Below, one piece after another: positions 4,763-17,712 of a DNA stretch of 20,000 nucleotides. The DNA is from an uncultured virus (IMG/VR IMGVR_UViG_2881085443_000001) (lineage: Duplodnaviria > Heunggongvirae > Uroviricota > Caudoviricetes > Crassvirales): IMG/VR virus record IMGVR_UViG_2881085443_000001; one strand, given 5' to 3'. The position numbers were made by a program, and so were the translations under genes. Position 1 is the first letter of the stretch; the number at the start of each line of letters is the position of its first letter. A model generated the notes under the pieces. That model saw only the letters and a list, made by a program, of their open reading frames with translations. It did not search any database and was not told the DNA's origin.

Positions 4763-4766
4763 TAGG

Positions 4767-4800: not shown

Positions 4801-4812
4801 TCGAATAAAAAA

Positions 4813-4862: not shown

Positions 4863-4884
4863 ACTAATTATAAAAACTAATCCA

Positions 4885-5103: not shown

Positions 5104-5150
5104 AAACAATAACAAAACAAATATTTAAAAATCATAAAAAAAACAAAGCC

Positions 5151-5279: not shown

Positions 5280-5330
5280 AATCATAAAACCAACAAATAA
5301 AACATTTAAAAACTTATAAAAATTTATATC

Positions 5331-5876
5331 ATGGAAAACACTGCAAAATTATTCGTAACAGATTACGCTAGTTATAACGAAGGAAAACAATTTGAGTTTG
5401 GTTATTGGGTTGAGTTAAACGATTTTAACGATGCTGAAGAATTCAATACATACATAACAACACATTTTAATAATGTTGTAGGATTACAAGACTTTGAGCC
5501 AATGTACACCGATTTCGAGGGGTTTCCTGATTCATTATATAGTGAGTCTATGAGTGAATCAGAACTTGAAAAAATATTTAAATATATAGAACTGGATTAC
5601 GAAAATAAAGACGACAGCGAAAAAGTTTCTTTATGGAATGAGTATTGTTCGGAGCAAAGGAATGAAGACGAAATACATAATTTCGACGATGATTTTTTTG
5701 ATATTTTTTTTGAAGGTAAACCAATGGAAGCAGCAAAGGCAGCGAGTTTTGGCGATGTTAATTGGTCAGATGATTATATAAGTTTTGACGGTTACGGGAA
5801 CTTAAAAAGCTTGTCAAATCCTATTCACGCAATTGACGAAAACGCACTAATTGAGTGGTTAATTGAAAATTTATAA
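5331..5876 (+). CDS. ardA: ArdA-like antirestriction DNA-mimic protein
   Basis: N-terminal LFVTDYASYNEG...G.WVEL.DF.D.EEF...EPMYTDFEGFP matches ArdA domain 1; about 43 D/E versus about 10 K/R in 181 aa (hand count). Confidence 0.8.
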   Translation: MENTAKLFVTDYASYNEGKQFEFGYWVELNDFNDAEEFNTYITTHFNNVVGLQDFEPMYTDFEGFPDSLYSESMSESELEKIFKYIELDYENKDDSEKVSLWNEYCSEQRNEDEIHNFDDDFFDIFFEGKPMEAAKAASFGDVNWSDDYISFDGYGNLKSLSNPIHAIDENALIEWLIENL

Positions 5877-5887
5877 TCTATTACAAC

Positions 5888-5934
5888 GCCTTCGCAAAGA
5901 AATGGTTTTCGGTTCGATACCGACGAAGGCACAA
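5888..5934 (+). ncRNA. tRNA-like minihelix, element 2
   Basis: 7-bp stem GCCTTCG/CGAAGGC plus T-arm TCGG-TTCGATA-CCGA (GGTTCGATACC); no D or anticodon arm. Confidence 0.55.
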
Positions 5935-5970
5935 ATTTAAAACTAATTATTTAATCTAAAAACTTATATC

Positions 5971-6525
5971 ATGGCTAACAATTGTATGAATTACATCACT
6001 ATCAACGGAAATGATAATGATATTAAAGAGTTTTCACAACTTTTAAAAATAGACGAACAACAACCAAACGGTTATGACATTTACGAAAACTTATGTAATG
6101 AGTTTGGGAAATCTGAAAATGACGGAAGATGGTTTGATATTCAATTAGTAGAACAAGACAAAAATACTATTGTTATATCTGGAGATAGTGCCTGGTGTCC
6201 TTGTCTTGAATTATTTACAAAAATAAGCGGCAAATATACATCATTAGAAATTCATTATGAATACGAAGAAAGCGGATGTGATTTTGCAGGTTTTGCAGAA
6301 ATAAACGAAGGTAATTGCGATGATAATTGTTTTGGATATTGGGAAGGAAAAGCAAAAAATGACTATGAATACGCTTTTCAAACTGCTTTTGAAGATATAG
6401 AATATTACTACGAAGAAGATAGCGAAGAAGATTTTATATATAGTTCTATGTATAAAGCATTTGAACCAAAAGAACAAGCGGAACTTTTAGAGGAATTTAG
6501 AAATAAATTAATCGAGCAAAACTAA
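5971..6525 (+). CDS. DUF1281/YubB-like ferredoxin-fold acidic protein
   Basis: MANNCMNYITING start and DSAWCP...L...IS.KY..LEI...YEESGCDFAG motif; very acidic. Confidence 0.72.
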   Translation: MANNCMNYITINGNDNDIKEFSQLLKIDEQQPNGYDIYENLCNEFGKSENDGRWFDIQLVEQDKNTIVISGDSAWCPCLELFTKISGKYTSLEIHYEYEESGCDFAGFAEINEGNCDDNCFGYWEGKAKNDYEYAFQTAFEDIEYYYEEDSEEDFIYSSMYKAFEPKEQAELLEEFRNKLIEQN

Positions 6526-6617
6526 TGAAGAAGCAACCCAACACAACAGAAAACCGATGTAAGATAATTTTATCGGTTTTCTTTCTCCTGATTACTTCAA
6601 TTATTATTCAACTTTAA
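6525..6617 (+). CDS. Possible tiny TM peptide (30 aa)
   Basis: TAATG overlap; MKKQPNTTENRCKIILSVFFLLITSIIIQL*; overlaps a terminator-like hairpin, so uncertain. Confidence 0.35.
   Translation: MKKQPNTTENRCKIILSVFFLLITSIIIQL
6548..6586 (+). terminator. Intrinsic terminator-like hairpin within the early operon
   Basis: AGAAAACCGAT (6548-6558) / ATCGGTTTTCT (6572-6582), then TTCT. Confidence 0.5.
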
Positions 6618-6628
6618 AAAATACGATT

Positions 6629-6793
6629 ATGAATATATATTATAGCATCCGAGTAATGAAAGCAAAGACCGAAGAAAAAGCCAGAAAAAAAATGTGTGAT
6701 GATAATTTTTTTGAAGATCACGAATTATGCGACGTGATTCTCTCAGAACAAGAGCTGAAAGACTATTTAAAGAATAAAAATAAAAAGCCATGA
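6629..6793 (+). CDS. Small hypothetical protein (54 aa), not in the ORF track
   Basis: MNIYYSIRVMKAKTEEKARKKMCDDNFFEDHELCDVILSEQELKDYLKNKNKKP*; ATGA overlap with the next gene. Confidence 0.6.
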   Translation: MNIYYSIRVMKAKTEEKARKKMCDDNFFEDHELCDVILSEQELKDYLKNKNKKP

Positions 6794-6969
6794 AAAAAGC
6801 AATTATTATTATTTGGACATTCCTAACAATTGTTTTATTAATACTCGGAATTTACGGCTATTACATACAAAACAAAATAATTGATATTGAAAAACGGGCC
6901 TATCAAAAACTGACAGAAGAAAACAAAGATCTAATTGAATTTATAATATTTGGCGAAAGTCAAGAGTAA
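6790..6969 (+). CDS. Small membrane-anchored protein (59 aa), not in the ORF track
   Basis: MKKAIIIIWTFLTIVLLILGIYGYYIQNKIIDIEK...DLIEFIIFGESQE*. Confidence 0.65.
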   Translation: MKKAIIIIWTFLTIVLLILGIYGYYIQNKIIDIEKRAYQKLTEENKDLIEFIIFGESQE

Positions 6970-6981
6970 AAAAATAAAACC

Positions 6982-7212
6982 ATGAATCAAGCGCAAAAAA
7001 AAGAATCTCTTACTAAATTTTTAAGAGTTTCAGACAAAAATCAAAAGTATTTTATTACTACGGATCAAATAACAGGCAAACGTTTTGCAGTTGCAGAATT
7101 CGGAGAACCGGGAGAAGTAAACATCAAAAGTAATTTTATGAAATTCAAAGAAATGGAATGCTTTTTATTTGGAGTAAACGCAGTAAAAAACAATACTTTA
7201 AAAATAAACTAA
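6982..7212 (+). CDS. Hypothetical early protein (76 aa)
   Basis: ORF track; A-rich leader; operon packing. Confidence 0.75.
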   Translation: MNQAQKKESLTKFLRVSDKNQKYFITTDQITGKRFAVAEFGEPGEVNIKSNFMKFKEMECFLFGVNAVKNNTLKIN

Positions 7213-7224
7213 AAATCATATCTA

Positions 7225-7296
7225 ATGAAAAACTTTAGAGATCAAATCGAGAATTTTATAATCAGATTAACAAAAATGTTATTCTCACAAGTATAA
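7225..7296 (+). CDS. Possible tiny peptide (23 aa)
   Basis: MKNFRDQIENFIIRLTKMLFSQV*; 12 nt after the previous stop. Confidence 0.4.
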   Translation: MKNFRDQIENFIIRLTKMLFSQV

Positions 7297-7345
7297 AAAA
7301 ATTAACTATTTTAATACAAATAATTTTTACTAATAAGAAAAATTT

Positions 7346-7435
7346 ATGGAATTATCAGAACGAATAAAATACAATATAGGCGCCGGACTACTTTTTTTAT
7401 TAGCAGCGTCCGGCATGTACTTAGCATCATATTAA
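7346..7435 (+). CDS. Tiny TM peptide (29 aa)
   Basis: MELSERIKYNIGAGLLFLLAASGMYLASY*. Confidence 0.45.
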   Translation: MELSERIKYNIGAGLLFLLAASGMYLASY

Positions 7436-7447
7436 CACTAAAAAAAA

Positions 7448-7503
7448 GCCGTTAAAATCTTTAAAATGGAGATTTATTTGTAGCGATAACAGAAACGGCA
7501 CTA
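7448..7503 (+). ncRNA. tRNA-like T-loop element 3
   Basis: P1 GCCGTT/AACGGC, P2 AAATCT/AGATTT, P3 TTTGT-AGCGATA-ACAGA stacked directly on P1. Confidence 0.5.
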
Positions 7504-7532
7504 AGAAAATTTTAATCAAAAACCTTTATAAA

Positions 7533-7694
7533 ATGAAACAAACTATTTTGACGCACAAAGATCCGGAAATGCTAGGAAAGGAATTAATTACTGAACTGCA
7601 GAAACTAAATACTGATTTTGTAATAATTCACAGCTCTACTTTTTACGATCACATTGACGAATTTTTTAAAGCAATCATACTATACCACGAATAA
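7533..7694 (+). CDS. Small hypothetical protein (53 aa), not in the ORF track
   Basis: MKQTILTHKDPEMLGKELITELQKLNTDFVIIHSSTFYDHIDEFFKAIILYHE*. Confidence 0.6.
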   Translation: MKQTILTHKDPEMLGKELITELQKLNTDFVIIHSSTFYDHIDEFFKAIILYHE

Positions 7695-7704
7695 ATAAAA
7701 ACTC

Positions 7705-7776
7705 ATGAACAAGAAGCAATCTATTATTTTAATCATCATTTTACTTGCCATCATTACTGCTGCAGGTATATACTAA
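7705..7776 (+). CDS. Tiny TM peptide (23 aa)
   Basis: MNKKQSIILIIILLAIITAAGIY*; sits between two genes with 10-nt gaps on each side. Confidence 0.5.
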   Translation: MNKKQSIILIIILLAIITAAGIY

Positions 7777-7786
7777 AAAAAAAGCC

Positions 7787-7969
7787 ATGGAAAAATTAGT
7801 TAAAAAAAGCAGCCTTAGATCTGGACTAAACAGATTTTTTAGAATGACACAACGAATCGAAATTACTAAACTACCTACTAATACGGTAACAGTAAGAAAT
7901 GTTTATAAAAACAAGCAAATTATTGAAGTAACAAGTGATACTTTTGCTAGGTTTAACTCTAGAATTTAA
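7787..7969 (+). CDS. Small basic hypothetical protein (60 aa)
   Basis: Start revised to ATG 7787 (aaagccATG leader) instead of TTG 7745. Confidence 0.6.
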   Translation: MEKLVKKSSLRSGLNRFFRMTQRIEITKLPTNTVTVRNVYKNKQIIEVTSDTFARFNSRI

Positions 7970-7987
7970 TTCAAAACAAAAATAAAA

Positions 7988-8200
7988 ATGACAGAAATAG
8001 AAATCTTTGCAAAATTTGTAAAGGACAAAAGGACAGCGTTAGGAAAATCAATTGCTGATTTATCTGAAGAAGTTTTCAACGATAGAAAAAATAGATACAT
8101 TAGTGACCTGGAGAACGGAAGAAGAAAAGGAATTACTATTGATGTAATGGGTAAGATACTGGCTGCACTAAACACAGAAATTAGTTATAAAGAACTGTAA
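7988..8200 (+). CDS. XRE-family HTH regulator (Cro-like)
   Basis: VKDKRTALGKSIADLSEEV...YISDLENGRR..ITIDVMGKILAAL. Confidence 0.88.
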   Translation: MTEIEIFAKFVKDKRTALGKSIADLSEEVFNDRKNRYISDLENGRRKGITIDVMGKILAALNTEISYKEL

Positions 8201-8228
8201 AATTATTTAAACTAAAATAAAAATAAAA

Positions 8229-8522
8229 ATGGAAAAAGAAAAAGAAATCAAAAACACTGCAGATGGAGAGAGAACAGTAGAAATTCCTTTGAAAAGGTAT
8301 GACGAATTGTTAATTAAAGAGAAAATGACCATGGATAGTGATAAAGAATTAAAGCAGCTTACAGATGTTTTAGTAATATCCAACAGTTTAACTATGGAAC
8401 TTATAGCAGAAAAAGGAGCTCTACAAAATCAAAATATTGAATTATTAAATCTAAGAAAAAGTAAAACTTGGACGGAAATATTCACTAGTATAAAAAATAA
8501 AATTTTATTTAAAAGTGAGTAA
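8229..8522 (+). CDS. Hypothetical coiled-coil protein (97 aa)
   Basis: TVEIPLKRYDELL motif, helical; last gene before the terminator. Confidence 0.7.
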   Translation: MEKEKEIKNTADGERTVEIPLKRYDELLIKEKMTMDSDKELKQLTDVLVISNSLTMELIAEKGALQNQNIELLNLRKSKTWTEIFTSIKNKILFKSE

Positions 8523-8540
8523 TAGCGTATAAAAAAATAT

Positions 8541-8572
8541 AAAAAAAGCGACCCTTAGTGGTCGCTTTTTTT
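8541..8572. terminator. Bidirectional intrinsic terminator
   Basis: AAAAAAAGCGACC-CTTAGT-GGTCGCTTTTTTT between convergent operons. Confidence 0.85.
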
Positions 8573-8953
8573 GTTTAATGATTTTTCTATTCTAAGCAGA
8601 ATACTTTCTATATTTTTCAAAACAGTAAAAGATTCTACGCTGTAATCTGGCGACTCAATTGCAATAGTTTTACCGAACAAATTAGCTTGGTTTCGTTTTA
8701 ATTTATCGTTTAAAGCAATTGGATCCTGGCCTTTTTTCAAGAACCAGTAATTAATCTCCGGGAAGCGCTTAATTATTTTATCAATCAAATTATCACTAAT
8801 TTTATTTCGATCATGCAAAATATGATCAATTGAAGAGTGACTAGCGTACCCTAATTCCTTAGAAAATCCTAATGCAGAATACCTTAATTCTGCTAAAACC
8901 CTTTTCATTATTTCAGAATCAGGTAAATTTTTGTTGTTTTCATTATTTGCCAT
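8555..8953 (-). CDS. Phage repressor-like HTH protein (CI-like, no obvious S24 peptidase domain)
   Basis: FSKELGYASHSSIDHILHDRNKIS..LIDKIIKRFPEINYWFLKKG, an XRE-type HTH common in Bacteroidota. Confidence 0.8.
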   Translation of the reverse strand: MANNENNKNLPDSEIMKRVLAELRYSALGFSKELGYASHSSIDHILHDRNKISDNLIDKIIKRFPEINYWFLKKGQDPIALNDKLKRNQANLFGKTIAIESPDYSVESFTVLKNIESILLRIEKSLNKKSDH

Positions 8954-8992
8954 TTTCGTTTATTTTTATGTTGTTAATATTTTTTTACTTGA

Positions 8993-9310
8993 TTAAATTG
9001 TATTATTTATTCTCTGAAATCCATCTACTAAATCTTCATGTGACATTGCGTCGTATTCATTCAAGTCAATAGTATCGACATACTCCAAGAAGGAAAGTAA
9101 CACTTTATTTTGCTCAATAACAGACAATTTTGCACTACTAATTATATTCCAGTTTTTCAAAAAAGAAGATAAAGATTCATACGGACATTTCCCCGTACCG
9201 TCCAGTCTATTTATCGATAGCGATTTTATATCAGACAATTTTAATTCATATTCCTTTCCGTTTTCATATCCTAATGAATTCGTTCCTGTAAATTTTGCTT
9301 TAATTTCCAT
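8993..9310 (-). CDS. Hypothetical protein (105 aa) between integrase and repressor
   Basis: Starts 1 nt after the integrase stop; likely co-transcribed. Confidence 0.75.
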   Translation of the reverse strand: MEIKAKFTGTNSLGYENGKEYELKLSDIKSLSINRLDGTGKCPYESLSSFLKNWNIISSAKLSVIEQNKVLLSFLEYVDTIDLNEYDAMSHEDLVDGFQRINNTI

Positions 9311-9311
9311 C

Positions 9312-10607
9312 TTAATTTACTTTCTTATAATTTATATCCCAAACTTTTTTCAAGCTCTCAGCGTGTTCTCTATTCGTTTTCTTAATATAGTCTAGCATCT
9401 GTTCCTCGCTCTTCCATCCACATATAGCCATCAAAGTACTATTACTTACCGTTCCGTAAATGTTAGTCGCAAAACTTCTCCTGCAAATGTGGCTTGTTAT
9501 CAGTTCGTGTTTTGGGTATAAACTTACTACTTTTCTTTTAACTTTAGTTTTAGGATCAACTTTTGCAACCCCGCCCATCATTTGAGTATCAAATTTCAAA
9601 ATTCCCGCTATTGTTTTAATATGTTTATTGAATTTAGGATCACAAATTTTTTCTGGCAGCGCTCCGTTTCTTTTCTTCAAAATATCGTGTATCATCCAGT
9701 GAACAGGAATAGAAACCCAAGTTTTTGTTTTCTCAGTTTGAATTTCAATAAAATCATCATGAAAATTATCTAATTTAAGTTTCGATAAAAAATCTGAAAT
9801 ACGTAAACCGGTCCACAATCCAATAATTAAATTGTCTCTCACATTATCTAGCGTAGGATTTTCAGAAAAATCATGGTTATAAATTTTATTTATTTCCAAT
9901 TCATCAAAATAAGGTTCTTTGTAATCGTGGTTTTCTTTAGTAACAAAAACTCTATTTTTATAACTCTGATTAATCAAAATGTTTTCTGCTTCTGCTCTAC
10001 CGCAAAAGAATTTAAATCTTCCAATCATCCTGCGAGCTGTTTTTTCAGCGTAAGATTCAGCCGTTAGAAATTCAGAAAAATTATCCAGCAAAGTATCATC
10101 AATTGAACTAAATTTTATTTTGTCTTTTCCTTCAAATTTCTGGATCAATTTATTCAAAATAGTATAATGGCTTTGTGTTCTTTCTTCCATGTATTTATCA
10201 GCCGAAACTTTAAATTTTGGTGCTTTCTCTTTTAGCCACCAGGTAGCAAAATCAGTCAAATAAAGTTTATGAAGTTCTGGCGCTTTTTTCAGTTCATTAG
10301 ACGGACGATTGAAAAATTTGGCTACGCTTTTTTCAAGCCAAATTTTATTCAAAATTTCACCTTCCATAAAATCCTCATTGACTGCATTAAAAAGATGGAT
10401 CTTTAATTCTGATAATTTAGAATTTAACTTGTCTCTATTCGGGACCGCTATAACGTTTCGTATTTTCTGGTTATCCTGGTCCCAATACTTAGGATCAATA
10501 AATACATTAATACCAGCGCCAGTATCAGTACTTCTTCCGCTAATGAAACGGATACGGATTTCTGAAGGAGATTTTTTACCTACAATGTAGTACTTTAGTG
10601 TTGCCAT
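9312..10607 (-). CDS. int: Phage tyrosine integrase (431 aa)
   Basis: N-terminal arm-binding-like and SAM-like domains; catalytic TGLRISD (R), EKTK (K), HICRRSFAT (HxxR), CGW (W), LDYIK (Y); start revised to MATLKYY at 10607. Confidence 0.95.
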   Translation of the reverse strand: MATLKYYIVGKKSPSEIRIRFISGRSTDTGAGINVFIDPKYWDQDNQKIRNVIAVPNRDKLNSKLSELKIHLFNAVNEDFMEGEILNKIWLEKSVAKFFNRPSNELKKAPELHKLYLTDFATWWLKEKAPKFKVSADKYMEERTQSHYTILNKLIQKFEGKDKIKFSSIDDTLLDNFSEFLTAESYAEKTARRMIGRFKFFCGRAEAENILINQSYKNRVFVTKENHDYKEPYFDELEINKIYNHDFSENPTLDNVRDNLIIGLWTGLRISDFLSKLKLDNFHDDFIEIQTEKTKTWVSIPVHWMIHDILKKRNGALPEKICDPKFNKHIKTIAGILKFDTQMMGGVAKVDPKTKVKRKVVSLYPKHELITSHICRRSFATNIYGTVSNSTLMAICGWKSEEQMLDYIKKTNREHAESLKKVWDINYKKVN

Positions 10608-10655
10608 AATTTTCGTTTTAATTTGATCAAAAGAACACTCTTCCCAAAGCATTCC

Positions 10656-10677
10656 ATCCCGACAATATCCCGACCAG
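10656..10677. repeat. Tandem direct repeat, probable integrase arm-type sites
   Basis: ATCCCGACAAT ATCCCGACCAG, 11-bp period, about 110 bp from the att core. Confidence 0.55.
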
Positions 10678-10697
10678 TTTGAACCAATACAAACATA

Positions 10698-10714
10698 TTA
10701 TACTACAAATATAA
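10698..10714 (-). promoter_or_regulatory. Promoter -7 box (TATATTTG, 10706-10713) for int-hyp-repressor, overlapped by an operator A-like site
   Basis: TTATACTACAAATATAA contains both the perfect half site TTATACTA and CAAATATA. Confidence 0.55.
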
Positions 10715-10767
10715 AATTATTTTTACTATAAATACAAAATATATGTACTTTTATTCTAATACGTGTA

Positions 10768-12267
10768 TTAATAGTATAAATCCGTCTTCCAGTCAAGGTC
10801 ACTTAATCTATTGTTTACCAAATAGATACAGTTAATAATTTCGTTGAGTCGGGTGGTTTGGAATTGGTTTTCCCGAAACGTGAAATTTTCGGGATAAATT
10901 AAACCAATTAGTTCTCTAGTATCAGCTAAACTACTGTTTTCACAGGCTTCTCCGAGCTTTAAAAGGTTTTCCAATCCTGTATTCATTAATTGCTCAATAT
11001 TACCCTTATCATCATCTGCATTCCCAATCTGTTTTTCTAAATTACTTATGATGCCATTATATTCTTTTTTCATAAGATTGTAATCTTCAACCTCGATTTT
11101 TTCAGTTACCAATAAGTTCCTTGCAACTGATAATTTCTTTTCATATTCCGAAATCTGTTCCAGCGACTTTCTCTTTTCATTAGCTATAATCCCTGTATGC
11201 TCTCTATAAGCTTCAAGTAGCACAGCAGTATATAGTTTCTTAACTGGTTCTAAAGGTTTGAATTTATTTAACTGTTCAATAAATATCTTGTTTGCTATTT
11301 CGGAGTTGACTCTCCATTTACAGAGCTTATCACAATGATAGTAATAGTAATATTTGTTTCTCCCTTTGCATTTACTGCCTGTGAGCTTTCGTCCGCACTG
11401 TGGACACTGGAAAAAACCTCTTAGAGGAAAATTTTCTATTGTTCTGACCTTAGGCCTATACGTTCTGGATTTACCGTCAAGAACATCCTGCACTCGGTAA
11501 AATAGTCCTTCACTGATTATTGCTTCATGTTGTCCATCCACCCATCGGACCTCTTCATCTTTATATTTAGGAACTACGATTTTCCCACAATACAGCGGAT
11601 TACGCAAAATAACCCACATGTTACTCTTAGCAATGCGCAACCCTTTTTCCTTTGCCATCTGGTAAATGGATTCAGTGCTGAAAGCATTTTTTGCAATCTG
11701 CTCAAATACCCATATAAGCTGAGTTGCTGCCTTCGGCTCGGGGGCTATATATTTTTTTCCGTCTTCAGTTGCTTTATTAACATAACCATAAGGAGCCATG
11801 CCCATATGCCTTCCTTCTTTCTTACCGCGTCTGAGCCCTTGAAATGTATTGAGTGCCCTTCTGTCATTTTCTACTTCTGGTGCTGCCAGATAAAATGCAA
11901 GCATCATCTTATTTTCTGGGACACTTAAATCAAGAGGCTGCTCTATAGCCTGAGGTTCAACACCTAGTTTTCTTAACAGGTTTATCATTTGATAGGCATC
12001 CCCTGCATTACGACTGAACCTGTCCCATTTCATGAAAAGAATCAGGTCTACTTTATTTTTATGTTTTTTAAGATTAACCAAAAGTTTTTTCCACTGTGGC
12101 CTGTTAAAAGTCTTTGCAGAATGATCTTCATAGATTACGTTGCGTATTTCCATATGATTAATGCTACAATATTTTCGCAACATTTCTTCCTGATTACGTT
12201 GTGAAAAACCTTTCTCAGCCTGCTCGTCAGTGCTGACCCTTATATATAAATCTGCTATCTTACTCAT
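10768..12267 (-). CDS. Large serine recombinase (ICE integrase), 499 aa
   Basis: YIRVSTDEQ (catalytic Ser), DRFSRN, APYGY, ILRNPLYCG, GQHEAII, Zn-ribbon CPQCG...YYHC, coiled coil. Confidence 0.95.
   Translation of the reverse strand: MSKIADLYIRVSTDEQAEKGFSQRNQEEMLRKYCSINHMEIRNVIYEDHSAKTFNRPQWKKLLVNLKKHKNKVDLILFMKWDRFSRNAGDAYQMINLLRKLGVEPQAIEQPLDLSVPENKMMLAFYLAAPEVENDRRALNTFQGLRRGKKEGRHMGMAPYGYVNKATEDGKKYIAPEPKAATQLIWVFEQIAKNAFSTESIYQMAKEKGLRIAKSNMWVILRNPLYCGKIVVPKYKDEEVRWVDGQHEAIISEGLFYRVQDVLDGKSRTYRPKVRTIENFPLRGFFQCPQCGRKLTGSKCKGRNKYYYYYHCDKLCKWRVNSEIANKIFIEQLNKFKPLEPVKKLYTAVLLEAYREHTGIIANEKRKSLEQISEYEKKLSVARNLLVTEKIEVEDYNLMKKEYNGIISNLEKQIGNADDDKGNIEQLMNTGLENLLKLGEACENSSLADTRELIGLIYPENFTFRENQFQTTRLNEIINCIYLVNNRLSDLDWKTDLYY
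10788..10802 (+). other. Putative att core: duplicated tRNA 3' end (tRNA-Arg-like) at the prophage/ICE junction
   Basis: TCCAGTCAAGGTCAC reads as T-stem 3' strand + acceptor 3' strand; from memory it resembles Flavobacteriaceae tRNA-Arg(ACG) ...GAATCCAGTCGAGGTCAC; lies between two integrases. Confidence 0.6.
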
Positions 12268-12434
12268 CTTCTTTCGCTTAAATGTTTAGACACAGCGATA
12301 TTAGCGATTTTCCTCAACAAATACAAAATTTCCTGTACCTGTTCGAAAGTTACATCTAATCCTTCTGATCTCAGCATATGTAAAGCCCTTTCAGGCGTCA
12401 GCTTTGAATCCCTATAGTCCATATCCTTCTCCAT
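12264..12434 (-). CDS. Small protein coupled to the recombinase (56 aa), candidate directionality factor; not in the ORF track
   Basis: MEKDMDYRDSKLTPERALHMLRSEGLDVTFEQVQEILYLLRKIANIAVSKHLSERR*; ATGA overlap with the recombinase start. Confidence 0.75.
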   Translation of the reverse strand: MEKDMDYRDSKLTPERALHMLRSEGLDVTFEQVQEILYLLRKIANIAVSKHLSERR

Positions 12435-12730
12435 CCTCTTACTTTTTTAAATTCATATTCTTTTAAAAAGTAATTTAACCGTAAAACTGGCTCTAATAGT
12501 CATAATGGCAGTACTTGGCTCTGTCTGGAAATATATTTCCTATCTCTTAAAAATACTTCAACAAATTGCAAAAAAAATACCCATCATTTATAATTCTGGT
12601 TATTCACATGTCATCAATTATCCAATACAACTAAACAATTAAGATAAAGACTTCGATTAGTTTTTATAGCTATTTTTTTTTTACCGTTTTATCTCATTTA
12701 ACTTCCTTTCTTCCTATTTCATTTGGTGAG

Positions 12731-12922
12731 GAGCACCGATGCTTGGTTCTTTTTTTTCAGGAGCAAAGGTATTTTCGGGCTCTTAACGGATAACCAAGGT
12801 CAGGCCCTTTGAGGTTTTGAATAAAATCTCCACCCATGCGGGTTGTATTTTTCTCAAAAACCTTGGTTTTCCTAAACCCTACCTTTTTATGCTCATGAAA
12901 CAAAACCAGCATACTCCGGCTC
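12731..12922. promoter_or_regulatory. Long imperfect fold-back, putative single-stranded-DNA promoter (Frpo-like)
   Basis: Nested arms ATGC/GCAT, TGGTT/AACCA, TTTCA/TGAAA, GAGCA/TGCTC, AAGGTA/TACCTT, GGATAACCAAGGT/ACCTTGGTTTTCC, TTTTGA/TCAAAA; upstream of ssb. Confidence 0.65.
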
Positions 12923-13116
12923 TTTACACGAATAAAAAAAATGTCACATATGAAAAACAATCAATTAAATATTACAAATGAAACAAAACAGCGCCTCCTC
13001 TCATTGCCGAATAAATATTTTAAAAAAATAGGCAAACCTAATAAGGCTCACAGAGGAGAGCAGATTGAAAGAAAATGAAGTGTAACAATAGTGAATAACA
13101 GTTAAAAAAGAAAATC

Positions 13117-13494
13117 ATGAACATCATCGGAAGACTGACAAGGGATGCGGAAGTACGCAGAACGTCACAGGAAAAACAAGTAGTAAACTTTTCAGTAGCT
13201 ACTAACGACAGCTACAGAAACAAGCAGGGCGAACGCATAGAGCAGACAACGTACTTCGACTGTTCGTATTGGCTTAGTCCAAAAGTAGCGCAGATACTCA
13301 CAAAAGGTACGGTGGTAGAACTCACAGGCAGAGTAAGTGCAAGGGCATGGACGGGCAGTGACGGAGAAGCACACGCAGGGCTAAATTTCAATACCTCGCA
13401 AATCAAACTGCACGGGGGTGGCAAAAAATCCGAAACGGTGCAGGCTCACGCAGGAAACAGCAACGATAAGGAAAATGACGACCTCCCATTTTAA
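13117..13494 (+). CDS. ssb: Single-stranded DNA-binding protein
   Basis: IIGRLTRDAEVR...NFSVATN...LTKG..V...G, acidic C-terminal DDLPF tail. Confidence 0.95.
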   Translation: MNIIGRLTRDAEVRRTSQEKQVVNFSVATNDSYRNKQGERIEQTTYFDCSYWLSPKVAQILTKGTVVELTGRVSARAWTGSDGEAHAGLNFNTSQIKLHGGGKKSETVQAHAGNSNDKENDDLPF

Positions 13495-13538
13495 TCAAGA
13501 GTATTCAAACAATTATCAAATTTTTAAATCATTTTATC

Positions 13539-14612
13539 ATGGCACATAATATCAATTTCAACAGCACAACAGGACGTTATTCATTCTTTAGCGTAAAAGA
13601 AAAAGCGTGGCACGGCTTAGGGCAAATCGTAGCGCAATACCCTACGAGCGAAGAAGCAATCAAGCACGCAGGATTAGATTATGAAGTCATAAAAACACCA
13701 CTATATACCAAAGGTTCGGGCATCATCGAAACCAGAAACGGTATTGAAATAGGCAGTAGCGAATTGGAAGTACCTTCCTATTATGCCAATATCCGTGCCG
13801 ATAACAATGCCGTATTGGGTGTGGTTGGCAAAGACTATCACATCGTACAAAACCGTGAAGCATTCAATTTTTTTGATGCTATTGTAGGTGGTTCACAAGG
13901 AATATTATACGAAACCGCAGGAGTATTGGGACAAGGGGAACGCATCTTTATTACCGCCAAACTACCCGATTATATCCGAGTAGGAAATGGCGATGATGTA
14001 ACAGAAAAGTACATTTTCCTAACCACTTCGCACGATGGCAGTGGAAGCATAACAGCAGCCTTCACCCCTATCCGTATTGTTTGCCAAAATACCCTTAACG
14101 CCTCGCTTCGTTCAATGAGCAACGTGGTACGCATCAAACATACTTCGGGAGCAAAACAGCACTTGGAAAATGCACACAAGGTTATGGGATTAGCGGATAC
14201 CTTAAGCAACCAGTTAGAAGGAATATTCAACCAGTGGGCTAAAGTAAAGGTGACTGACCAAGAAGTAAAAAAACTAATCCAATTGGCTCTTTGCCCAAAC
14301 AAGGAAACATTGGATTTGCTAAAGAAGGGTGCAGAAGATGAAGTTTCCACCGTCTTCAAAAATGTGGTACAAGATGCCTTTGCCTATGCTATGACAAGCG
14401 ACACCCAACAAATGGATACCACCAAAGGCACATTGTTCGGGGCATACAATGCTGTGACAGGGTACTATCAGAATGTGCGCAATTACAAAGATGATGAAGC
14501 CAAGTTACAAAGTATTGTAATGGGTGGAACCGCTCAAATCAAATCACAGAAAGCATTTGAATTGTGTACTGCCTTTTCAATAAACGGCTCGGAAATCTTA
14601 AATCTCAATTAA
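13539..14612 (+). CDS. DUF932 family phage/plasmid-like protein
   Basis: MAHN, AWHGLG, YHIVQNREAF.FFD, YETAG.L..G, TTSHDGSGS, TPIRIVCQNTL, GTLFGAYNAVT. Confidence 0.9.
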   Translation: MAHNINFNSTTGRYSFFSVKEKAWHGLGQIVAQYPTSEEAIKHAGLDYEVIKTPLYTKGSGIIETRNGIEIGSSELEVPSYYANIRADNNAVLGVVGKDYHIVQNREAFNFFDAIVGGSQGILYETAGVLGQGERIFITAKLPDYIRVGNGDDVTEKYIFLTTSHDGSGSITAAFTPIRIVCQNTLNASLRSMSNVVRIKHTSGAKQHLENAHKVMGLADTLSNQLEGIFNQWAKVKVTDQEVKKLIQLALCPNKETLDLLKKGAEDEVSTVFKNVVQDAFAYAMTSDTQQMDTTKGTLFGAYNAVTGYYQNVRNYKDDEAKLQSIVMGGTAQIKSQKAFELCTAFSINGSEILNLN

Positions 14613-14619
14613 TAACTAC

Positions 14620-14651
14620 AGGCGACTGCCTTTACAGGTGGTCGCCTATTT
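14620..14651 (+). terminator. GC-rich hairpin after DUF932 (weak terminator or mRNA stabiliser)
   Basis: AGGCGACTGCCT-TTAC-AGGTGGTCGCCT with G-U pairs, short ATTT tail. Confidence 0.55.
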
Positions 14652-14664
14652 AAAATTTACAATC

Positions 14665-15039
14665 ATGACAAAGGAAAACAAGAAGAAAAATGAATTTGCA
14701 GATTACCTTTTCAACCAATTTGTAAAAGCAGAACGTAGGGACAAACAAGATTGGTCGCTGAATTATTGGAACGTTTTAACCCAATATGCAGAGATTGGGT
14801 TGTCTGATGAAGAACAGTCTGAAGAAAGATTATACGTATTTAAACTTGATATTATAATTAGGGAAGCTATGTCAGGCTGGAACACACACCTATTGATCCT
14901 GCGTGGAAAAGAAGCCGAACAGGATTATAGGGAAAGAATGAAAAAATATGAAGAACGCTTACGTGCCATTGGACATGACGAAGCAACAATTAAGCAAATG
15001 TTAGACTATAAAATCAAATTAAATTATGGAACCGACTAA
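14665..15039 (+). CDS. Hypothetical helical protein (124 aa) preceding PRTRC E
   Basis: Start revised to ATG 14665 because GTG 14638 lies inside the hairpin; overlaps the next gene. Confidence 0.75.
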   Translation: MTKENKKKNEFADYLFNQFVKAERRDKQDWSLNYWNVLTQYAEIGLSDEEQSEERLYVFKLDIIIREAMSGWNTHLLILRGKEAEQDYRERMKKYEERLRAIGHDEATIKQMLDYKIKLNYGTD

Positions 15040-15565
15040 TTTTTTCAATCAGATAGCGCAAATGGGCATTACGGGAGATTTACAGCTCACTATATCAAAG
15101 GGTATAGAAAACACCCTTATTGTTTCCATAATGCTTCAAAATGAGCAATGTGGTGATAATGCGAAACAACTGATACCACCGCTTAATCTGCGGGGAACAG
15201 CAGAAGAATTGGACGAGGGATTTTTTCAGCAGATAACAACGCCTTTGCATACCGCTTCGGGTTTAGTGGTAAATATGGAAGCCTTTATGAAGCAATTGGA
15301 AGTAGCCAAAAAGCAATCGGCAATGGAGAAAGAAAAATCCGAAAAAGAGAAGAAAGAACAGGAAGCCAAAGACAAGAAGTTTAAAGACGGCATGGCAAAG
15401 GCAGACGAATTGGAGAAAGAGGATAAATTCCGTGAAGCATGGATGAAAGTACCCGAAATTACAGACTTCCCCGAAAAGGCAGACGAGATACGCAAACGCA
15501 AATCGGAACTATCAAACCAATTTTCTTCAACAGGTCTTTTTGCGACTGAACAAACTACCGTTTAA
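15026..15565 (+). CDS. PRTRC system protein E
   Basis: NFFNQI...LIVSIM.....CGD.AK.LIPPLNLRGTAEELDEGFF motif; position in the cassette. Confidence 0.85.
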   Translation: MEPTNFFNQIAQMGITGDLQLTISKGIENTLIVSIMLQNEQCGDNAKQLIPPLNLRGTAEELDEGFFQQITTPLHTASGLVVNMEAFMKQLEVAKKQSAMEKEKSEKEKKEQEAKDKKFKDGMAKADELEKEDKFREAWMKVPEITDFPEKADEIRKRKSELSNQFSSTGLFATEQTTV

Positions 15566-15581
15566 CACAAAATCAAGAGTT

Positions 15582-15800
15582 ATGTTATTAGCAACACAGT
15601 TAGAACGAGTATTTATACTTAAAGATAAAGGGCAGGACATCAGACTGACCGACCCCGAACCACGTTGGAGTGTGGAAGCGGTATTGAATTTTTACGCCAA
15701 TACGTATCCCATACTAACCACCGCAAAAATATCTGCCCCCATCATCCGTGATGATAGGATAGAATACAAATTAGAGAGCGTAATGGGAACAAAAGGTTAA
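15582..15800 (+). CDS. PRTRC system protein C (prokaryotic ubiquitin-like, 72 aa)
   Basis: LERVF...LTDPEP..SVEAVLNFYANTYP.LTTA...GTKG with C-terminal Gly; start revised to ATG 15582. Confidence 0.9.
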   Translation: MLLATQLERVFILKDKGQDIRLTDPEPRWSVEAVLNFYANTYPILTTAKISAPIIRDDRIEYKLESVMGTKG

Positions 15801-15817
15801 ACCAAAAATAAAAAACA

Positions 15818-16993
15818 ATGAACTATGCAACGCAATATCCTATCGGGAACTATCAGCATACCCGAACAGAAAACACAACGGCAACTGCACAGACAATTGG
15901 GCGAGTTCTCACAATGGATGCAAAGAGCCAAAGACACAAACGAAGTACGGAAAGACAAACAGAAATCCGTACCGATAGCAATGCTTCCAATGGTTTTCTA
16001 AAGTGTGGGTTTCTGCCTAAACTGAAAACAACACAATCCACACAGGATTGTAAGAAAACAGCAAAAACGCAAAGGGATTTTTACAAGTCCCTTTCCCAAC
16101 TTGCAGAGCATTACGGCATTGAACCGTTACAAACGCAGGAATACGGCTACCCCTACAATATGGCTTTGGCTATGTGGGATGCTGAAACCAAGTTAAAACA
16201 AAACAATGTCAATTGGGATAATTTACGTTTGGTACAGGATAGTAAGAAAACATTTTTTACGAGCGAAGAACGATACAGCACAGGTACAACCCTATACTAT
16301 ATTCCAATCGTGCCACTCTTTCAAATGCTCTATGACCCAAAGCGTAAAAAGACGGCTCAATTGCTTGTTTCGATTTGCAGTTATCTATATCATATTGTCG
16401 ATATACCGTATTATAGACAGGAAAACAGCTATCTGTATTGGATGTATGAAATGATGAACGATTGGGTAGAACAGGATGATTATACCGAAGAAACGGACAG
16501 CTGTATTGCTGAGATTGCAAAAGCTGAATGGATAGGCGAACGGGTTGAACAGAAACTATTCAATCGCATCAATTTACAGTTATTTGAACAGCGTTTTAAC
16601 CGCTTTAAAAGCCGTGATACATTCGACCAGGAATGCCAAAAAGTCGCTTGCGATGCCTTTGCCCTTTATTCACAATATCCACACGAGAGCATTTTCCGAA
16701 ACGCACCAAGACCCGAAGAAGACCCCTATACTGATGAAAACGATTGCGAAACTGTTGGAATGGAAAAGTATATCTCCTTTATAGCAGATACCACAGGTTG
16801 GTTGTATGAGAGCCTTGCGGATAGTATCAACAATGAGTTTAACGAGTATGGAGCAATGGAAGAACCAACAATTTGTAAATACTTTGACGGTAGCAACATA
16901 ACGCAAACCAATCTTGATTTTGAGAACCGCCTGTTTGCCCTTTTGGACGAACTCTGCACACTACTGTATGATTATAAAACGACAAGAAAATGA
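15818..16993 (+). CDS. PRTRC-associated protein in the protein-F position (391 aa)
   Basis: Sits between C and B with an ATGA overlap to B; family inferred from position, no decisive motif. Confidence 0.6.
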   Translation: MNYATQYPIGNYQHTRTENTTATAQTIGRVLTMDAKSQRHKRSTERQTEIRTDSNASNGFLKCGFLPKLKTTQSTQDCKKTAKTQRDFYKSLSQLAEHYGIEPLQTQEYGYPYNMALAMWDAETKLKQNNVNWDNLRLVQDSKKTFFTSEERYSTGTTLYYIPIVPLFQMLYDPKRKKTAQLLVSICSYLYHIVDIPYYRQENSYLYWMYEMMNDWVEQDDYTEETDSCIAEIAKAEWIGERVEQKLFNRINLQLFEQRFNRFKSRDTFDQECQKVACDAFALYSQYPHESIFRNAPRPEEDPYTDENDCETVGMEKYISFIADTTGWLYESLADSINNEFNEYGAMEEPTICKYFDGSNITQTNLDFENRLFALLDELCTLLYDYKTTRK

Positions 16994-17712
16994 ACAATAT
17001 AAACGACATAACCGAGAATTTTGGAACACTTTACCACCCAAAATCTGCATTGGTTTTTTACCAAACCAAAGGGACGAATACCGATATGTATGTGGAGCAT
17101 TTTGATTTGGACAAAAACGGAACTCCTGTCAATGCCCATCCATTGACCGTAAATGAAGCTAAAGTATTGGCAAAGGCTTTACACACCGACAAAGAAAAGG
17201 ACAAAGCCTTTTTAAAGCCAAAAGGGATTTTGCAGACCAATATACTGCATATCAATCCAAGCGAAAAAGGCGCGGTACTTTGGTACACCAAAGCACAGGA
17301 ACAGCAATTATATTTTGTGAACGGCTTGGGCATACCCAACGGCAAAGCTTATGTACCATCAATGCTTTGGTATGCCAGTAAAAACAGCCTTGCGGTATTT
17401 GCTCTTGCAACTGACAGAAGACCATCGGAAAATACACCATTGTATTATGCTCCTTTCTTCAACATTTATGAAGACGGCAAAGTCTGTATGGGAACTGTAA
17501 GTATAGACATTAAAAATTCCGCTTCTGTGGAGGAATTTACAACTGCTTGGGAAGACTACTTTTTTAACAGCTATTTCAGCCATTTCTTAGGAAAACAAAA
17601 TCCCATAAAAGGGAATTGCGTAATCCTTTGGAAAAAACTGATTGAAACCAGCGAAGTCTTTCCTAAAGAGACCTTGAAAAAGAACAACAAAACACTTAAA
17701 AATCTTTTGTGA
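16990..17712 (+). CDS. PRTRC system protein B (prokaryotic E2-like)
   Basis: TPLYYAPFFNIYEDGKVCMG (catalytic Cys context) and WEDYFFNSYFSH. Confidence 0.9.
   Translation: MNNINDITENFGTLYHPKSALVFYQTKGTNTDMYVEHFDLDKNGTPVNAHPLTVNEAKVLAKALHTDKEKDKAFLKPKGILQTNILHINPSEKGAVLWYTKAQEQQLYFVNGLGIPNGKAYVPSMLWYASKNSLAVFALATDRRPSENTPLYYAPFFNIYEDGKVCMGTVSIDIKNSASVEEFTTAWEDYFFNSYFSHFLGKQNPIKGNCVILWKKLIETSEVFPKETLKKNNKTLKNLL

Follow-up and report, generated by a model that had tools for sequence, protein, structure and literature searches.

Large serine recombinases, or serine integrases, are known from phiC31, Bxb1, A118, TP901-1, TnpX of Tn4451, TndX of Tn5397 and SprA of SPbeta. The ICE CTnDOT uses a tyrosine integrase, IntDOT, and non-tRNA sites. 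To our knowledge, the working rule is that tRNA genes serve as targets of tyrosine integrases only. Stacking of elements on one site has been catalogued by Islander, which gives 125 tandems of at least two elements (PMC4383910). The type II ICEs of Elizabethkingia anophelis are described at the 3' end of tRNA-Leu-CAA, most of them reported without an integrase and a few with serine recombinases (bioRxiv 10.1101/402107). In full-text literature searches, with subscription journals outside the scope, we found no account of tRNA-targeting serine integrases on Bacteroidota ICEs.

Here we analyse a window of 20,000 nucleotides (the whole stretch of DNA under study), in which the right-hand part of a prophage meets the left part of an ICE and the serine recombinase gene of the ICE crosses the junction. 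The features are listed in Table 1, where positions without a prefix are those of the window and positions prefixed C12 are those of C12 in the same genome.

Table 1. Features of the window around the prophage-ICE junction
Feature	Position	Strand	Remark
Right-hand 10.8 kb of prophage	1-10787		Early/regulatory genes, ArdA, HTH regulator, integrase; PHROG matches
Prophage integrase, probably of the tyrosine type, 446 aa	9312-10652	minus	Start codon 135 nt from att core
16-nt motif TTATACTAYWAATAYA, three copies	10698-10713 (+), 10721-10736 (+), 10764-10779 (-)		Between integrase gene and core
Serine recombinase ORF of ICE	10768-12267	minus	499 aa
Prophage attR core: last 15 nt of tRNA-Arg(ACG) + TT	10788-10804	plus	Direct repeat of C12:273052-273068
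50-bp deletion	between 10803 and 10804		Relative to every relative examined; lost: predicted terminator hairpin and T-run
Left 9.2 kb of CTnDOT-type ICE	10804-20000		Left end fixed at 10804
ICE SSB gene	13117-13494
ICE DUF932 gene	13539-14612
ICE PRTRC genes	15026-18518
ICE sigma-70 r4 protein gene	18788-19342
ICE TraQ gene	19560-20000

A prophage and an ICE on either side of a tRNA-Arg(ACG) fragment

The 15-mer at 10788-10802 has exactly two copies in the 3.84-Mb genome, and by our own arithmetic a chance second copy is expected ~0.007 times (7.7 Mb over the two strands). The other copy (C12:273052-273066) forms the last 15 nt of a tRNA-Arg(ACG) gene (C12:272992-273066), which lies 69.4 kb upstream and has no second copy among the 44 tRNA genes detected in the genome. 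A preliminary description of the window had recognized the 15-mer as a tRNA-Arg(ACG) 3' end, and both the tRNA gene and a copy of the core indeed lie at the far prophage end. The repeat identity totals 17 bp, consisting of the 15-mer and TT, and this direct repeat flanks a complete prophage of 69.4 kb (C12:273069-342499), with the intact tRNA-Arg(ACG) on the left, the displaced 3' fragment on the right and the integrase at a distance of 135 nt from the latter. Between the repeats are the genes of portal, large terminase, seven virion structural proteins, endolysin and tail fibre, in addition to a replication initiator, an SSB and exonucleases. The portal is 49% identical to that of Cellulophaga phage phi18:3, and all of the 87 matching phage records fall below 60% identity. 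With this gene set bounded by the repeats, the element is a temperate tailed phage integrated at a tRNA gene.

The phage integrase scores 37.8 bits with Phage_int_SAM_5 (PF13102), above the cut-off, 21.3 bits with Phage_integrase (PF00589), below the cut-off of 27.1, and 18.7 bits with Arm-DNA-bind_5, also below the cut-off. It matches a PHROG integrase with an E-value of 6.8e-9, and its C-terminus contains HICRRSF and later LDY, as identified by eye. Its relatives among 300 genomes of the genus reach 54% at best; tRNAs adjoin one of 29 foreign loci, and none of the 29 has a tRNA-Arg end in the 400 nt ahead of the integrase gene. This genus sample was uninformative as to the phage target, which the viral contigs did reveal. 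Two of the five viral contigs with the 17-mer (L184 and L187) contain attP-like sites; the one in L184 combines 18 nt from the 3' terminus of tRNA-Arg with TT and a hairpin, next to a 64%-identical integrase N-terminus. The 16-nt motif of the phage att arm has seven matches in the window at up to two mismatches, compared to 0.41 expected, three of the seven being the copies that built the pattern; the core-proximal copy in L184, TATTAATAGTAT, keeps the same 10-nt spacing from the 17-mer. The three copies in Table 1 probably serve the phage att arm as binding sites for the integrase. The stretch 10763-10779 had been taken for an operator-like site; the repeated motif there is real, and its core-nearest copy overlaps the recombinase stop codon. 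The phage-borne hairpin was called on the minus strand only by a simple terminator scan. One run (X2) yielded a 386-nt contig identical to 10300-10353 within the phage integrase gene, unjoined to informative sequence.

Beyond the genes in Table 1, the tra, mob, coupling-protein, topoisomerase and RteC genes of the ICE reach at least C12:385000. Together with those in the window, they comprise the conjugation genes TraQ, TraO, DUF4138, TraM, TraJ, TraG P-loop ATPase and DUF4133/4134, together with MobC_2, a YWFCY-domain coupling protein, a topoisomerase and RteC; the scan left out the ORF C12:370028-371329, a possible relaxase position that crosses a locus border. With conjugation, mobilization and coupling-protein genes all present, the element is a CTnDOT-type ICE of Bacteroidota. 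None of the 58 ORFs scanned at C12:351-416 kb matches Phage_integrase at an E-value of 1e-5 or below, and the sole integrase found on the ICE is the serine recombinase.

The candidate right ends of the ICE, an element of roughly 100 kb, are C12:435085, 493793 and 498809. A copy of the core at the far ICE end, which the preliminary description had proposed as a check, was not found; a short-word BLAST of the tRNA against C12:330-440 kb gave only chance matches of 9-12 nt, and a third tRNA-end copy at the far border was rejected as the 15-mer occurs only twice in the genome. Such a copy is not expected in any case, since integration by a serine recombinase does not create long direct repeats. 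Delimiting the ICE through G301, the genome behind locus L041 described below, was likewise rejected: G301 has a 7.2-kb stretch of 100% identity at C12:403808-411000, no match to C12:371-391 kb, and only paralog-like matches of 70-82% beyond C12:498.8 kb. In G173, a genome of the same genus, C12:371-391 kb finds no counterpart and 391-411 kb matches in scattered places only. G173 was rejected as a syntenic empty site, since the DNA downstream of its tRNA-Arg corresponds to upstream DNA in the present genome; its site is used here simply to illustrate an unoccupied one.

The substituted recombinase tail and the lost hairpin

Pfam search of the 499-residue ORF revealed the domains Resolvase, Recombinase and Zn_ribbon_recom (PF00239, 81.9 bits with a cut-off of 23.3; PF07508, 52.6 bits with 21.1; PF13408, 25.7 bits with 25.3), and the protein matches the PHROG integrase phrog_95 with an E-value of 5.7e-72. 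The N-terminal R-x-S-T motif is present in LYIRVSTDEQ (residues 7-16), to which the catalytic serine is assigned by analogy. Residues 1-488 are intact and 99.6% identical to those of L041, a locus from the record Flavobacterium psychrolimnae LMG 22018, where the enzyme has 516 aa. By contrast, residues 489-499 are a substitute tail made of a tRNA fragment in the wrong frame and phage DNA, such that the protein ends in NNRLSDLDWKTDLYY before the stop. Within this tail, the S-D-L-D-W codons occupy 10789-10803, where the ORF crosses the 15-mer, and KTDLYY with the stop codon occupies 10768-10788 in phage-side DNA; both features had been noted in the preliminary description and agree with the translation coordinates.

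In relatives the tail reads NNRL-RAKKNGTKDDISLLSRV-VTLTGFKPVTS followed by a stop. The frame of phage-free relatives continues for 50 more bases than here and ends with VT(L/S)TGFKPVT(S/F), 36 nt inside the tRNA. In L041, which is phage-free, the ICE end is 97.5% identical over 4.2 kb, and the ICE, 50 further bases and an antisense tRNA-Arg are contiguous; this locus aligns on both sides of 10803/10804 with the 50 bases unmatched in between. The recombinase frame in the window is thus shifted because these 50 bases are missing.

An explanation by phage insertion alone, with a phage-free ORF that continues as SDLDWIQTSN through the tRNA, was put forward in the preliminary description. The recombinase ORF does cross the tRNA-derived 15-mer and stop in phage DNA, and were the phage alone taken from the present sequence, the frame would, in our reading, continue through the antisense strand of the tRNA. 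However, all phage-free relatives have 50 more bases and another frame, ending in VT.TGFKPVT., with which L041 and contigs of three of the four public runs compared agree, and an SDLDW ending occurs in none of the 80 loci of close relatives; we regard phage insertion alone as extremely improbable. What stands of the proposed rewriting by the phage is that phage DNA supplies the end of the protein, whereas the 50-bp deletion of the hairpin did the other half. The dependence of the tail on context, which had also been anticipated, is borne out by the different tails at tRNA, element-element and phage junctions.

The missing segment contains hairpin arms CGGGACAAAAGA and TCTTTTGTCCCG followed by T8-9. 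A 60-nt segment could be compared in 75 of the 80 loci, five being dropped for truncated or broken alignments, and gave 45 distinct sequences. Of these, 44 form the hairpin with folding energies between -15 and -25 kcal/mol, and a run of T5-T9 comes after it; 94.8% of the hairpin cells pair, compared to 53-61% with the partners slid, and four of the 12 pairs are changed on both sides. With its stem-loop, T-run and compensatory changes, the lost segment is, as judged from the aligned sequences, a predicted ICE-borne intrinsic terminator for the tRNA gene. The simple terminator scan missed this hairpin in L041, in our own reading because its 9-nt loop exceeds the 8-nt limit of the tool.

The deletion is read from one assembly. 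Among the public runs searched, no phage-ICE junction was found (best share 0.52), and 10450-10803 was without cover; the contigs of three of the four runs, from three studies, extend from 10804 into ATCATCTTTTGTTCCGTTTTTTTTTGCCCG with the hairpin intact. An assembly artefact, with a normal ICE end beside the phage in reality, would fit the make-up of the lost stretch, which consists precisely of a strong hairpin and T9, both hard for some chemistries. Yet the full 60-nt segment was resolved in 75 of the 80 loci and the hairpin also in the three runs, while the contig around the junction spans 862 kb and joins the two sides cleanly and in register. An artefact is accordingly most unlikely, and the gap is treated below as a genuine deletion.

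Five of the 80 loci have a frameshifted tail, RAKKNGQKMIFFFCPE before the stop, caused by the length of an A-run; apart from these, the recombinase tails track the target tRNA. Because such frameshifts occur, comparison of the tails suggests that the tail is dispensable and that its change here is probably of little consequence.

Attachment sites and the order of insertion

The sequence GTGACC alone is common to the tRNA junctions, the element-element junctions, the two far-end-like sites of the present genome and the unoccupied G173 site, which points to crossover by the ICE recombinase within GGTCAC at the tRNA end. The attR core of the phage contains this GGTCAC and would thus include the crossover place of the ICE recombinase. 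At element-element junctions, which by our own reading occur in eight of the 80 loci, the tRNA-proximal hairpin arm TTTGTCCCG is palindromic with CGGGACAAA of the ICE far end around AGTAGTGACCTCTA. The palindrome has a 14-nt spacer and is complete (9/9) in L049, which with L044 forms a pair of family copies ~97 kb apart in the F-70 chromosome; among the other sites only C12:493793 reaches 9/9, and L050, L060 and C12:498809 reach 8/9 or less. The arm TTTGTCCCG may therefore double as the ICE-side half-site of the recombinase.

We propose, as a likely history, that three layers lie on one tRNA gene: an ICE on tRNA-Arg, a phage wedge and a 50-bp deletion. The CTnDOT-type ICE would have integrated through its large serine recombinase at the last bases (GGTCAC) of tRNA-Arg(ACG), with the recombinase gene as its outermost gene pointing at the tRNA, such that the final ~28 codons of the gene would be antisense first to the ICE-borne terminator and next to the terminal 36 nt of the tRNA. 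The 69.4-kb temperate phage would then have targeted the 15 nt at the very end of this tRNA through its tyrosine integrase, its attP bringing these 15 nt, TT and a terminator of its own. Insertion between tRNA and ICE would leave the intact tRNA at the phage left end and a 15-nt stub against the ICE. The 50-bp deletion, after phage insertion or possibly earlier, would have removed the ICE hairpin and T-run and brought the tRNA stub, out of frame, directly behind codon L488, with SDLDW derived from the stub and KTDLYY and the stop from the phage att arm. That phage and ICE target one tRNA had been proposed before, and the closest recombinase relatives do use tRNA-Arg(ACG).

The reverse order, in which the phage came first on tRNA-Arg and the ICE later entered the 15-nt stub as a secondary site, followed by the deletion, would give the same final arrangement. 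The stub retains GGTCAC and would have retained the native downstream sequence, and the far-end-like sites C12:493793 and 498809 precede native-looking terminators. However, the stub offers only 15 nt of the tRNA-side half-site, which is short by general knowledge of serine integrase sites, an intact tRNA was on offer 69 kb away, and in L041, as in 41 other loci, this ICE directly abuts the tRNA. The reverse order thus appears unlikely, and ICE first, phage second remains our preferred sequence of events.

The left att site of the ICE would have been damaged twice, by the phage on the tRNA side past 15 bp and by the deletion, which took the whole ICE-side half-site. The earlier proposal that phage insertion replaces part of the ICE att site holds for the tRNA-side sequence beyond 15 nt. 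It had further held that the ICE is trapped only until the phage leaves; phage excision, however, would not bring back the deleted 50 bp. With a left site damaged in both halves, the ICE is, by analogy with other serine integrases, probably immobile even after departure of the phage.

A tRNA-targeting recombinase family and its known counterparts

In 55 of the 80 close relatives, the recombinase ORF continues into a tRNA gene on the opposite strand, the targets being Arg-ACG (42), Met (9), Pro (2), Leu (1) and Arg-TCG (1). In a family-level sample, a tRNA lies at the 3' end of the gene in 23 of 27 loci, and a scripted check placed the end of the frame 20-131 nt inside the tRNA in 17 of the 27. 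A phylum-wide sample gave a recombinase that ends inside a tRNA in 20 of 29 loci, and at least 12 tRNA species are targeted across the samples. Two members of the family (L015 and L032) read into tRNA-Leu(CAA). In L087, another element with a tyrosine integrase (29% identity) lies between an ICE of the recombinase family and a 13-nt tRNA piece, with the hairpin intact and a recombinase tail of VTSTELQ; this locus is an independent case of a second element wedged between tRNA and ICE. Altogether, we lean modestly toward a clade of ICE serine integrases spanning the phylum Bacteroidota, whose members integrate at tRNA ends, carry attP in their own last codons and a replacement terminator, and use its stem as a binding half-site.

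The phage wedge and the deletion in the window are ordinary decay, and the recombinase family is the interesting part. If the proposal is true, the same ~50 bp would serve simultaneously as terminator, att arm and coding sequence of the protein tail, and a second element on the tRNA, or a small deletion, would disarm the ICE in one step. It would also overturn the rule that tRNA genes are targets of tyrosine integrases only, and explain tRNA-located ICEs annotated without an integrase. Island finders based on tRNA fragments presuppose tyrosine integrases and long direct repeats; such ICEs would be easily mis-bounded or called integrase-less because crossover in the last 6 bp leaves almost no repeat and the gene end lies under the tRNA. 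The locus would be a concrete case in which competition of elements for one tRNA can immobilize the earlier arrival, the phage taking the tRNA and the ICE keeping the stub. The family would moreover hold many natural integrase-attB pairs at conserved tRNA ends, which may become genetic tools for Bacteroidota if the att sites are confirmed.

Compared to known large serine recombinases, the enzyme shares the resolvase domain with RVST, the recombinase domain, the zinc ribbon and a long C-terminal region, and its element likewise shows no long direct repeats at the ends and a putative attP that looks like an imperfect palindrome around a short centre. It would differ in aiming at the final bases of a tRNA, in having its attP within the 3' coding end of the enzyme itself, and in bringing along a substitute terminator for that tRNA. 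The ICE resembles the CTnDOT family in its TraG ATPase, TraJ, TraM, DUF4138, TraO and TraQ, in addition to the MobC-like protein, coupling protein, topoisomerase, RteC and PRTRC genes, whereas it differs from CTnDOT in a serine recombinase aimed at a tRNA. Similar to the type II ICEs of Elizabethkingia, by the description given of them, it belongs to Flavobacteriales elements with a traA-Q module beside tRNA 3' ends; the overlap of gene and tRNA is absent from that description, as far as it goes (bioRxiv 10.1101/402107). As in tandem accretion, seen in Islander arrays and streptococcal ICE-IME, elements are stacked on one tRNA and the newcomer restores the tRNA while pushing the fragment outwards. 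Unlike these arrays, however, a tyrosine and a serine recombinase would use the same 15 bp here, and the inner integrase gene spans the shared site, such that stacking edits the protein end and the att half-site together.

The tRNA-Arg(ACG) site at the phage-ICE junction

Two recombinase genes are arranged in tandem in the window, a tyrosine integrase gene and a large serine recombinase gene, which lie head-to-tail on the same strand and are separated by 115 nt. The serine recombinase is an ordinary member of its class by domain content. Its C-terminal end reads ...NCIYLVNNRLSDLDWKTDLYY before the stop, where SDLDW is encoded by 10789-10803, spanning the 15-mer core, and KTDLYY plus the stop by 10768-10788. 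The gene content to the left of ~10788 is phage-like (Holliday-junction resolvase, GroES-like, ParB-like, ArdA and an HTH regulator), and that to the right is typical of a Bacteroidota conjugative element (SSB, DUF932, PRTRC genes and TraQ), with the G+C changing from ~0.29 to ~0.40 across the junction. These positions confirm the preliminary description of an open frame that crosses the 15-mer and ends in phage-side DNA.

Features of the window and of the contigs of the source genome (positions without prefix refer to the window; C12 and C5 are contigs, L004 to L006 loci)
Feature	Position	Strand	Content
Tyrosine integrase, 446 aa	9312-10652	-	
Large serine recombinase of the ICE, 499 aa	10768-12267	-	Resolvase, Recombinase and zinc-ribbon domains
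15-mer core	10788-10802		
PRTRC cluster on the ICE	15026-18518		PRTRC_E, prokaryotic ubiquitin-like protein, unassigned 391-aa protein, E2-like, ThiF-like E1
tRNA-Arg(ACG)	C12:272992-273066		ends in the 15-mer
Further prophage genes	483-746, 5331-5876, 5971-6525; L004:7545-8129		two GroES-like co-chaperonins, ArdA anti-restriction protein, Api92-like (DUF1281_C) protein
Prophage ORF, 2840 aa	C12:287918-296440		
Defence-like ICE cargo	L005:9508-14900 (C12:360508-365900)		ABC-3C middle component (MC3), DUF3732, NA37 nucleoid-associated protein, Hypoth_Ymh
PLD-family NgoFVII-like nuclease	L006:3367-4575		
Further ICE debris	C12:435085, 488846-489250, 493793, 498809		
Second serine recombinase, 510-aa frame	C5:39759-41329		25% identity to the ICE enzyme

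The window corresponds to C12:331713-351712 of a 3.84-Mb assembly, in which the 15-mer occurs exactly twice. The second copy forms the last 15 nt of tRNA-Arg(ACG), 69.4 kb upstream on the same strand, and the identity of the two copies extends to 17 bp (15-mer plus TT). This tRNA, single-copy among the 44 tRNA genes found, is the one that had been proposed from the sequence alone. The 69.4 kb between the repeats form a full prophage, encoding a portal, large terminase, virion proteins, endolysin, a 1285-aa tail fibre, replication initiator, SSB and exonucleases; the portal shares 49% identity with its counterpart in Cellulophaga phage phi18:3, which has a 71-kb genome.

A scan of viral contigs revealed the 17-mer in five of them, two of which (L184 and L187) have an attP-like layout. 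In L184, the N-terminus of an integrase (64% identical to that of the prophage) is followed by the motif TATTAATAGTAT, 18 nt of tRNA end plus TT, and a hairpin with a T-run. The phage thus brings along both the tip of the tRNA and its own terminator, and the left end of the prophage has the matching order of tRNA, CCCCAAC...GTTGGGG and T6. The site at 10763-10779, described previously as operator-like, is indeed a repeated motif, one of three 16-nt copies that separate the core from the integrase gene. An integrase-binding site is more likely than an operator, because the spacing is conserved in L184, where a distance of 10 nt separates the motif and the 17-mer, just as in the window. Given weaker copies at 3582-4748, the motif may also have a regulatory role.

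Relatives of the serine recombinase were searched at three depths. In the family sample (301 genomes, 27 loci), a tRNA gene lies antisense at the recombinase 3' end in 23 loci, and in 17 the open frame was verified by script to run 20-131 nt into the tRNA; the remaining ten comprise four skipped by the motif filter, three for which the script chose a wrong frame, and three accounted for by the copy of the source genome itself, a contig end or a fragment. Among 80 close relatives (58-99.6% identity), the frame ends inside a tRNA in 55, namely 42 Arg-ACG, nine Met-CAT, two Pro, one Leu-CAG and one Arg-TCG. The other 25 include six that run off the contig end, one broken locus and 18 without a tRNA within 400 nt, one of the latter being N-masked and one having a broken alignment. 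The same layout was found in 20 of 29 loci of the phylum-wide sample, at Arg, Pro, Gln, Met, Asn, Leu and Ser tRNAs. Altogether, the ICE targets the same tRNA as the phage, as had been proposed, and tRNA-end targeting is a habit of the recombinase family. The source genome also encodes a second, distant serine recombinase, whose 3' end lies 85 nt from an antisense tRNA-Val(TAC); this locus would be a further element with the same habit.

The missing 50 bases and the recombinase tail

The relatives at tRNA-Arg(ACG) end in NNRL-RAKKNGTKDDI(F/S)LLSRV-VT(S/L)TGFKPVT(S/F), comprising 17 codons beyond the window ORF and then a stretch of 36 antisense tRNA nucleotides, read in a frame other than that of SDLDW. 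The best comparator is the phage-free locus L041 (record Flavobacterium psychrolimnae LMG 22018), whose ICE end shows 97.5% identity over 4.2 kb and whose recombinase shows 99.6% identity for residues 1-488; past the tRNA, identity of the chromosomal flank is only 81-90%. In L041, the ICE runs through 50 additional bases straight into the antisense tRNA, and the alignment with the source genome breaks cleanly on either side of the 50 bases, with the gap located between 10803 and 10804. Contigs at least 99% identical from 10804 rightwards run on leftwards into ...ATCATCTTTTGTTCCGTTTTTTTTTGCCCG, the missing segment, in three of the four public runs compared (three studies); that of the fourth ends at 10804, and the phage-ICE junction was found in none of the public runs examined. 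As the 50-base deletion is not a multiple of three, the tRNA stub is read as SDLDW instead of VTLTG. The phage-free tail predicted previously (SDLDWIQTSN) was therefore wrong, since it was derived from a genome that lacks these bases. The deletion breakpoints have at most 1 nt in common.

In the locus L087, an ICE of the same family is separated from 13 nt of tRNA by another tyrosine-integrase element (29% identity); the locus L065 is similar in appearance. The phage wedge is thus not unique to the source genome. As the tail of L087 is changed to VTSTELQ with the hairpin intact, insertion alone is sufficient to rewrite the tail, and the deletion is an extra lesion specific to the source genome. 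The preliminary description was right that the tail depends on the junction, but its attribution of the C-terminus to the phage was incomplete, as the deletion is also involved.

In the direction of the tRNA, the missing segment starts right after the tRNA with a 12-bp stem (CGGGACAAAAGA / TCTTTTGTCCCG), a 9-nt loop and a run of T8-9. Of the 80 loci, five with truncated or broken alignments were dropped, and the other 75 provided this segment in 45 distinct versions. The hairpin forms in 44 of these versions, with folding energies of -15 to -25 kcal/mol, and the remaining one has lost 1 nt from an arm. Paired cells account for 94.8% of the alignment, compared to 53-61% with the partners slid. 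Both-side changes occur in four of the 12 pairs (36 cells), and the observed covariation score was reached by none of 500 shuffles. At the unoccupied site of another genome (G173), a native hairpin directly follows the tRNA. We read the missing segment as a putative intrinsic terminator, supplied by the ICE for a tRNA whose native terminator it displaces. The conserved-looking peptide KKNGTK...LLSR is simply this hairpin read backwards, and selection probably does not act on the tail as protein.

A difference of one A in an A-run yields the tail RAKKNGQKMIFFFCPE in five of the 80 loci. In four of them the frame stops on the tRNA border or 1-4 nt past it within the tRNA; the fifth, L049, ends at an element-element junction. 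Apart from these variants, the tails follow the target tRNA. The A-run varies by one base in L049, L053, L072, L073, L077 and L155, giving RAKKNGQKMIFFFCPE or a close variant with its stop at the tRNA border; the variation could be natural length polymorphism or homopolymer sequencing error. Between the ICE recombinase and phage integrase genes, the terminator-like hairpin is deleted and would act only in the opposite direction anyway, so read-through from the former into the latter is conceivable.

Proposed crossover site and probable fate of the ICE end

Four kinds of junctions were compared. The ICE-tRNA junctions read ...CCCGAGTA GTGACC TYGACTGGATTC, and the element-element junctions of eight tRNA-less loci (L046, L049, L050, L055, L059, L060, L066 and L079) read ...CCCGAGTA GTGACC TCTACGGGACAAATTTC. 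In the two far-end-like sites at C12:493793 and 498809, GTGACC is flanked by ICE-end sequence and, opposite to it, by what looks like a native terminator; the fourth kind is the unoccupied G173 site. As GTGACC is the only sequence common to all four, we infer that the crossover lies within the last 6-8 bp of the tRNA. The L049 junction forms a 9/9 palindrome, TTTGTCCCG-14 nt-CGGGACAAA, which matches 8/9 in L050 and C12:498809 and is weaker in L060. Since its left arm coincides with the arm of the terminator hairpin that lies nearest the tRNA, we propose, as the least secure step, that this arm doubles as the ICE-side att half-site.

The phage identity block (15-17 bp) includes the putative ICE crossover hexamer, so the two elements would truly compete for the same bases. 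The phage now owns the intact tRNA and provides its terminator. The ICE keeps 15 nt of tRNA with phage DNA before them and has lost everything from 1 nt past the tRNA end to codon L488, the whole proposed half-site. Other serine integrases generally require both half-sites of each partner, and by analogy the ICE should no longer be able to excise; excision of the phage would not repair its att site. Either order of arrival would fit the structure, but we favour an earlier arrival of the ICE, given that elsewhere the same ICE directly adjoins the tRNA. The damage looks recent given an intact recombinase body, with two differences from L041 in 488 residues. The local event is the decay of an ICE end.

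Surroundings of the ICE and comparison with known systems

Beyond the window, the ICE encodes TraO, DUF4138, TraM, TraJ, a TraG-type ATPase, MobC, a coupling protein, a topoisomerase and RteC, with these genes extending to at least C12:385000; by its transfer genes it is an ordinary CTnDOT-type ICE. The debris further downstream includes an N-terminal piece (158 aa) of a related serine recombinase (51% identity), a degenerate far end and, at a distance of 5 kb from each other, two far-end-like sites with a terminator-like hairpin behind each. This debris suggests that several elements accumulated at tRNA-Arg over time. Two paralogous gene clusters, inside (C12:437.7-470 kb) and beyond (499-506 kb) the island region, hold TauE, a pyridine-nucleotide oxidoreductase, AhpC, a rhodanese/beta-lactamase-fold protein and carbonic anhydrase. 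A 7.2-kb segment (C12:403808-411000) adjoining a DDE transposase fragment matches the start of a contig in the genome of L041 at 100% identity, compared to only 81-90% for the chromosomal flanks, and looks like a recently shared mobile segment. A ~100-nt repeat (93-96% identical) at the ends of contigs C7, C9, C14, C15 and C28 of the source genome, and at L041:1-106, the contig start, where it interrupts the ICE, is probably an assembly-breaking insertion sequence.

More than the local decay, the family-level layout merits follow-up, with its three parts of tRNA-tip integration, an att site inside the enzyme's last codons and a built-in terminator. We found no description of this gene-tRNA layout in Bacteroidota in the literature searched, which covers few subscription journals. 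Tandem stacking of elements at tRNA genes is a familiar phenomenon, and Islander lists 125 tandems (PMC4383910). Compared to textbook serine recombinases, the ICE enzyme departs in its target, the tRNA tip. Type II ICEs of Elizabethkingia at the 3' end of tRNA-Leu-CAA are reported in a preprint as mostly "lacking an integrase" (10.1101/402107). As two members of the family sample read into tRNA-Leu(CAA), this recombinase family may explain such seemingly integrase-less elements.
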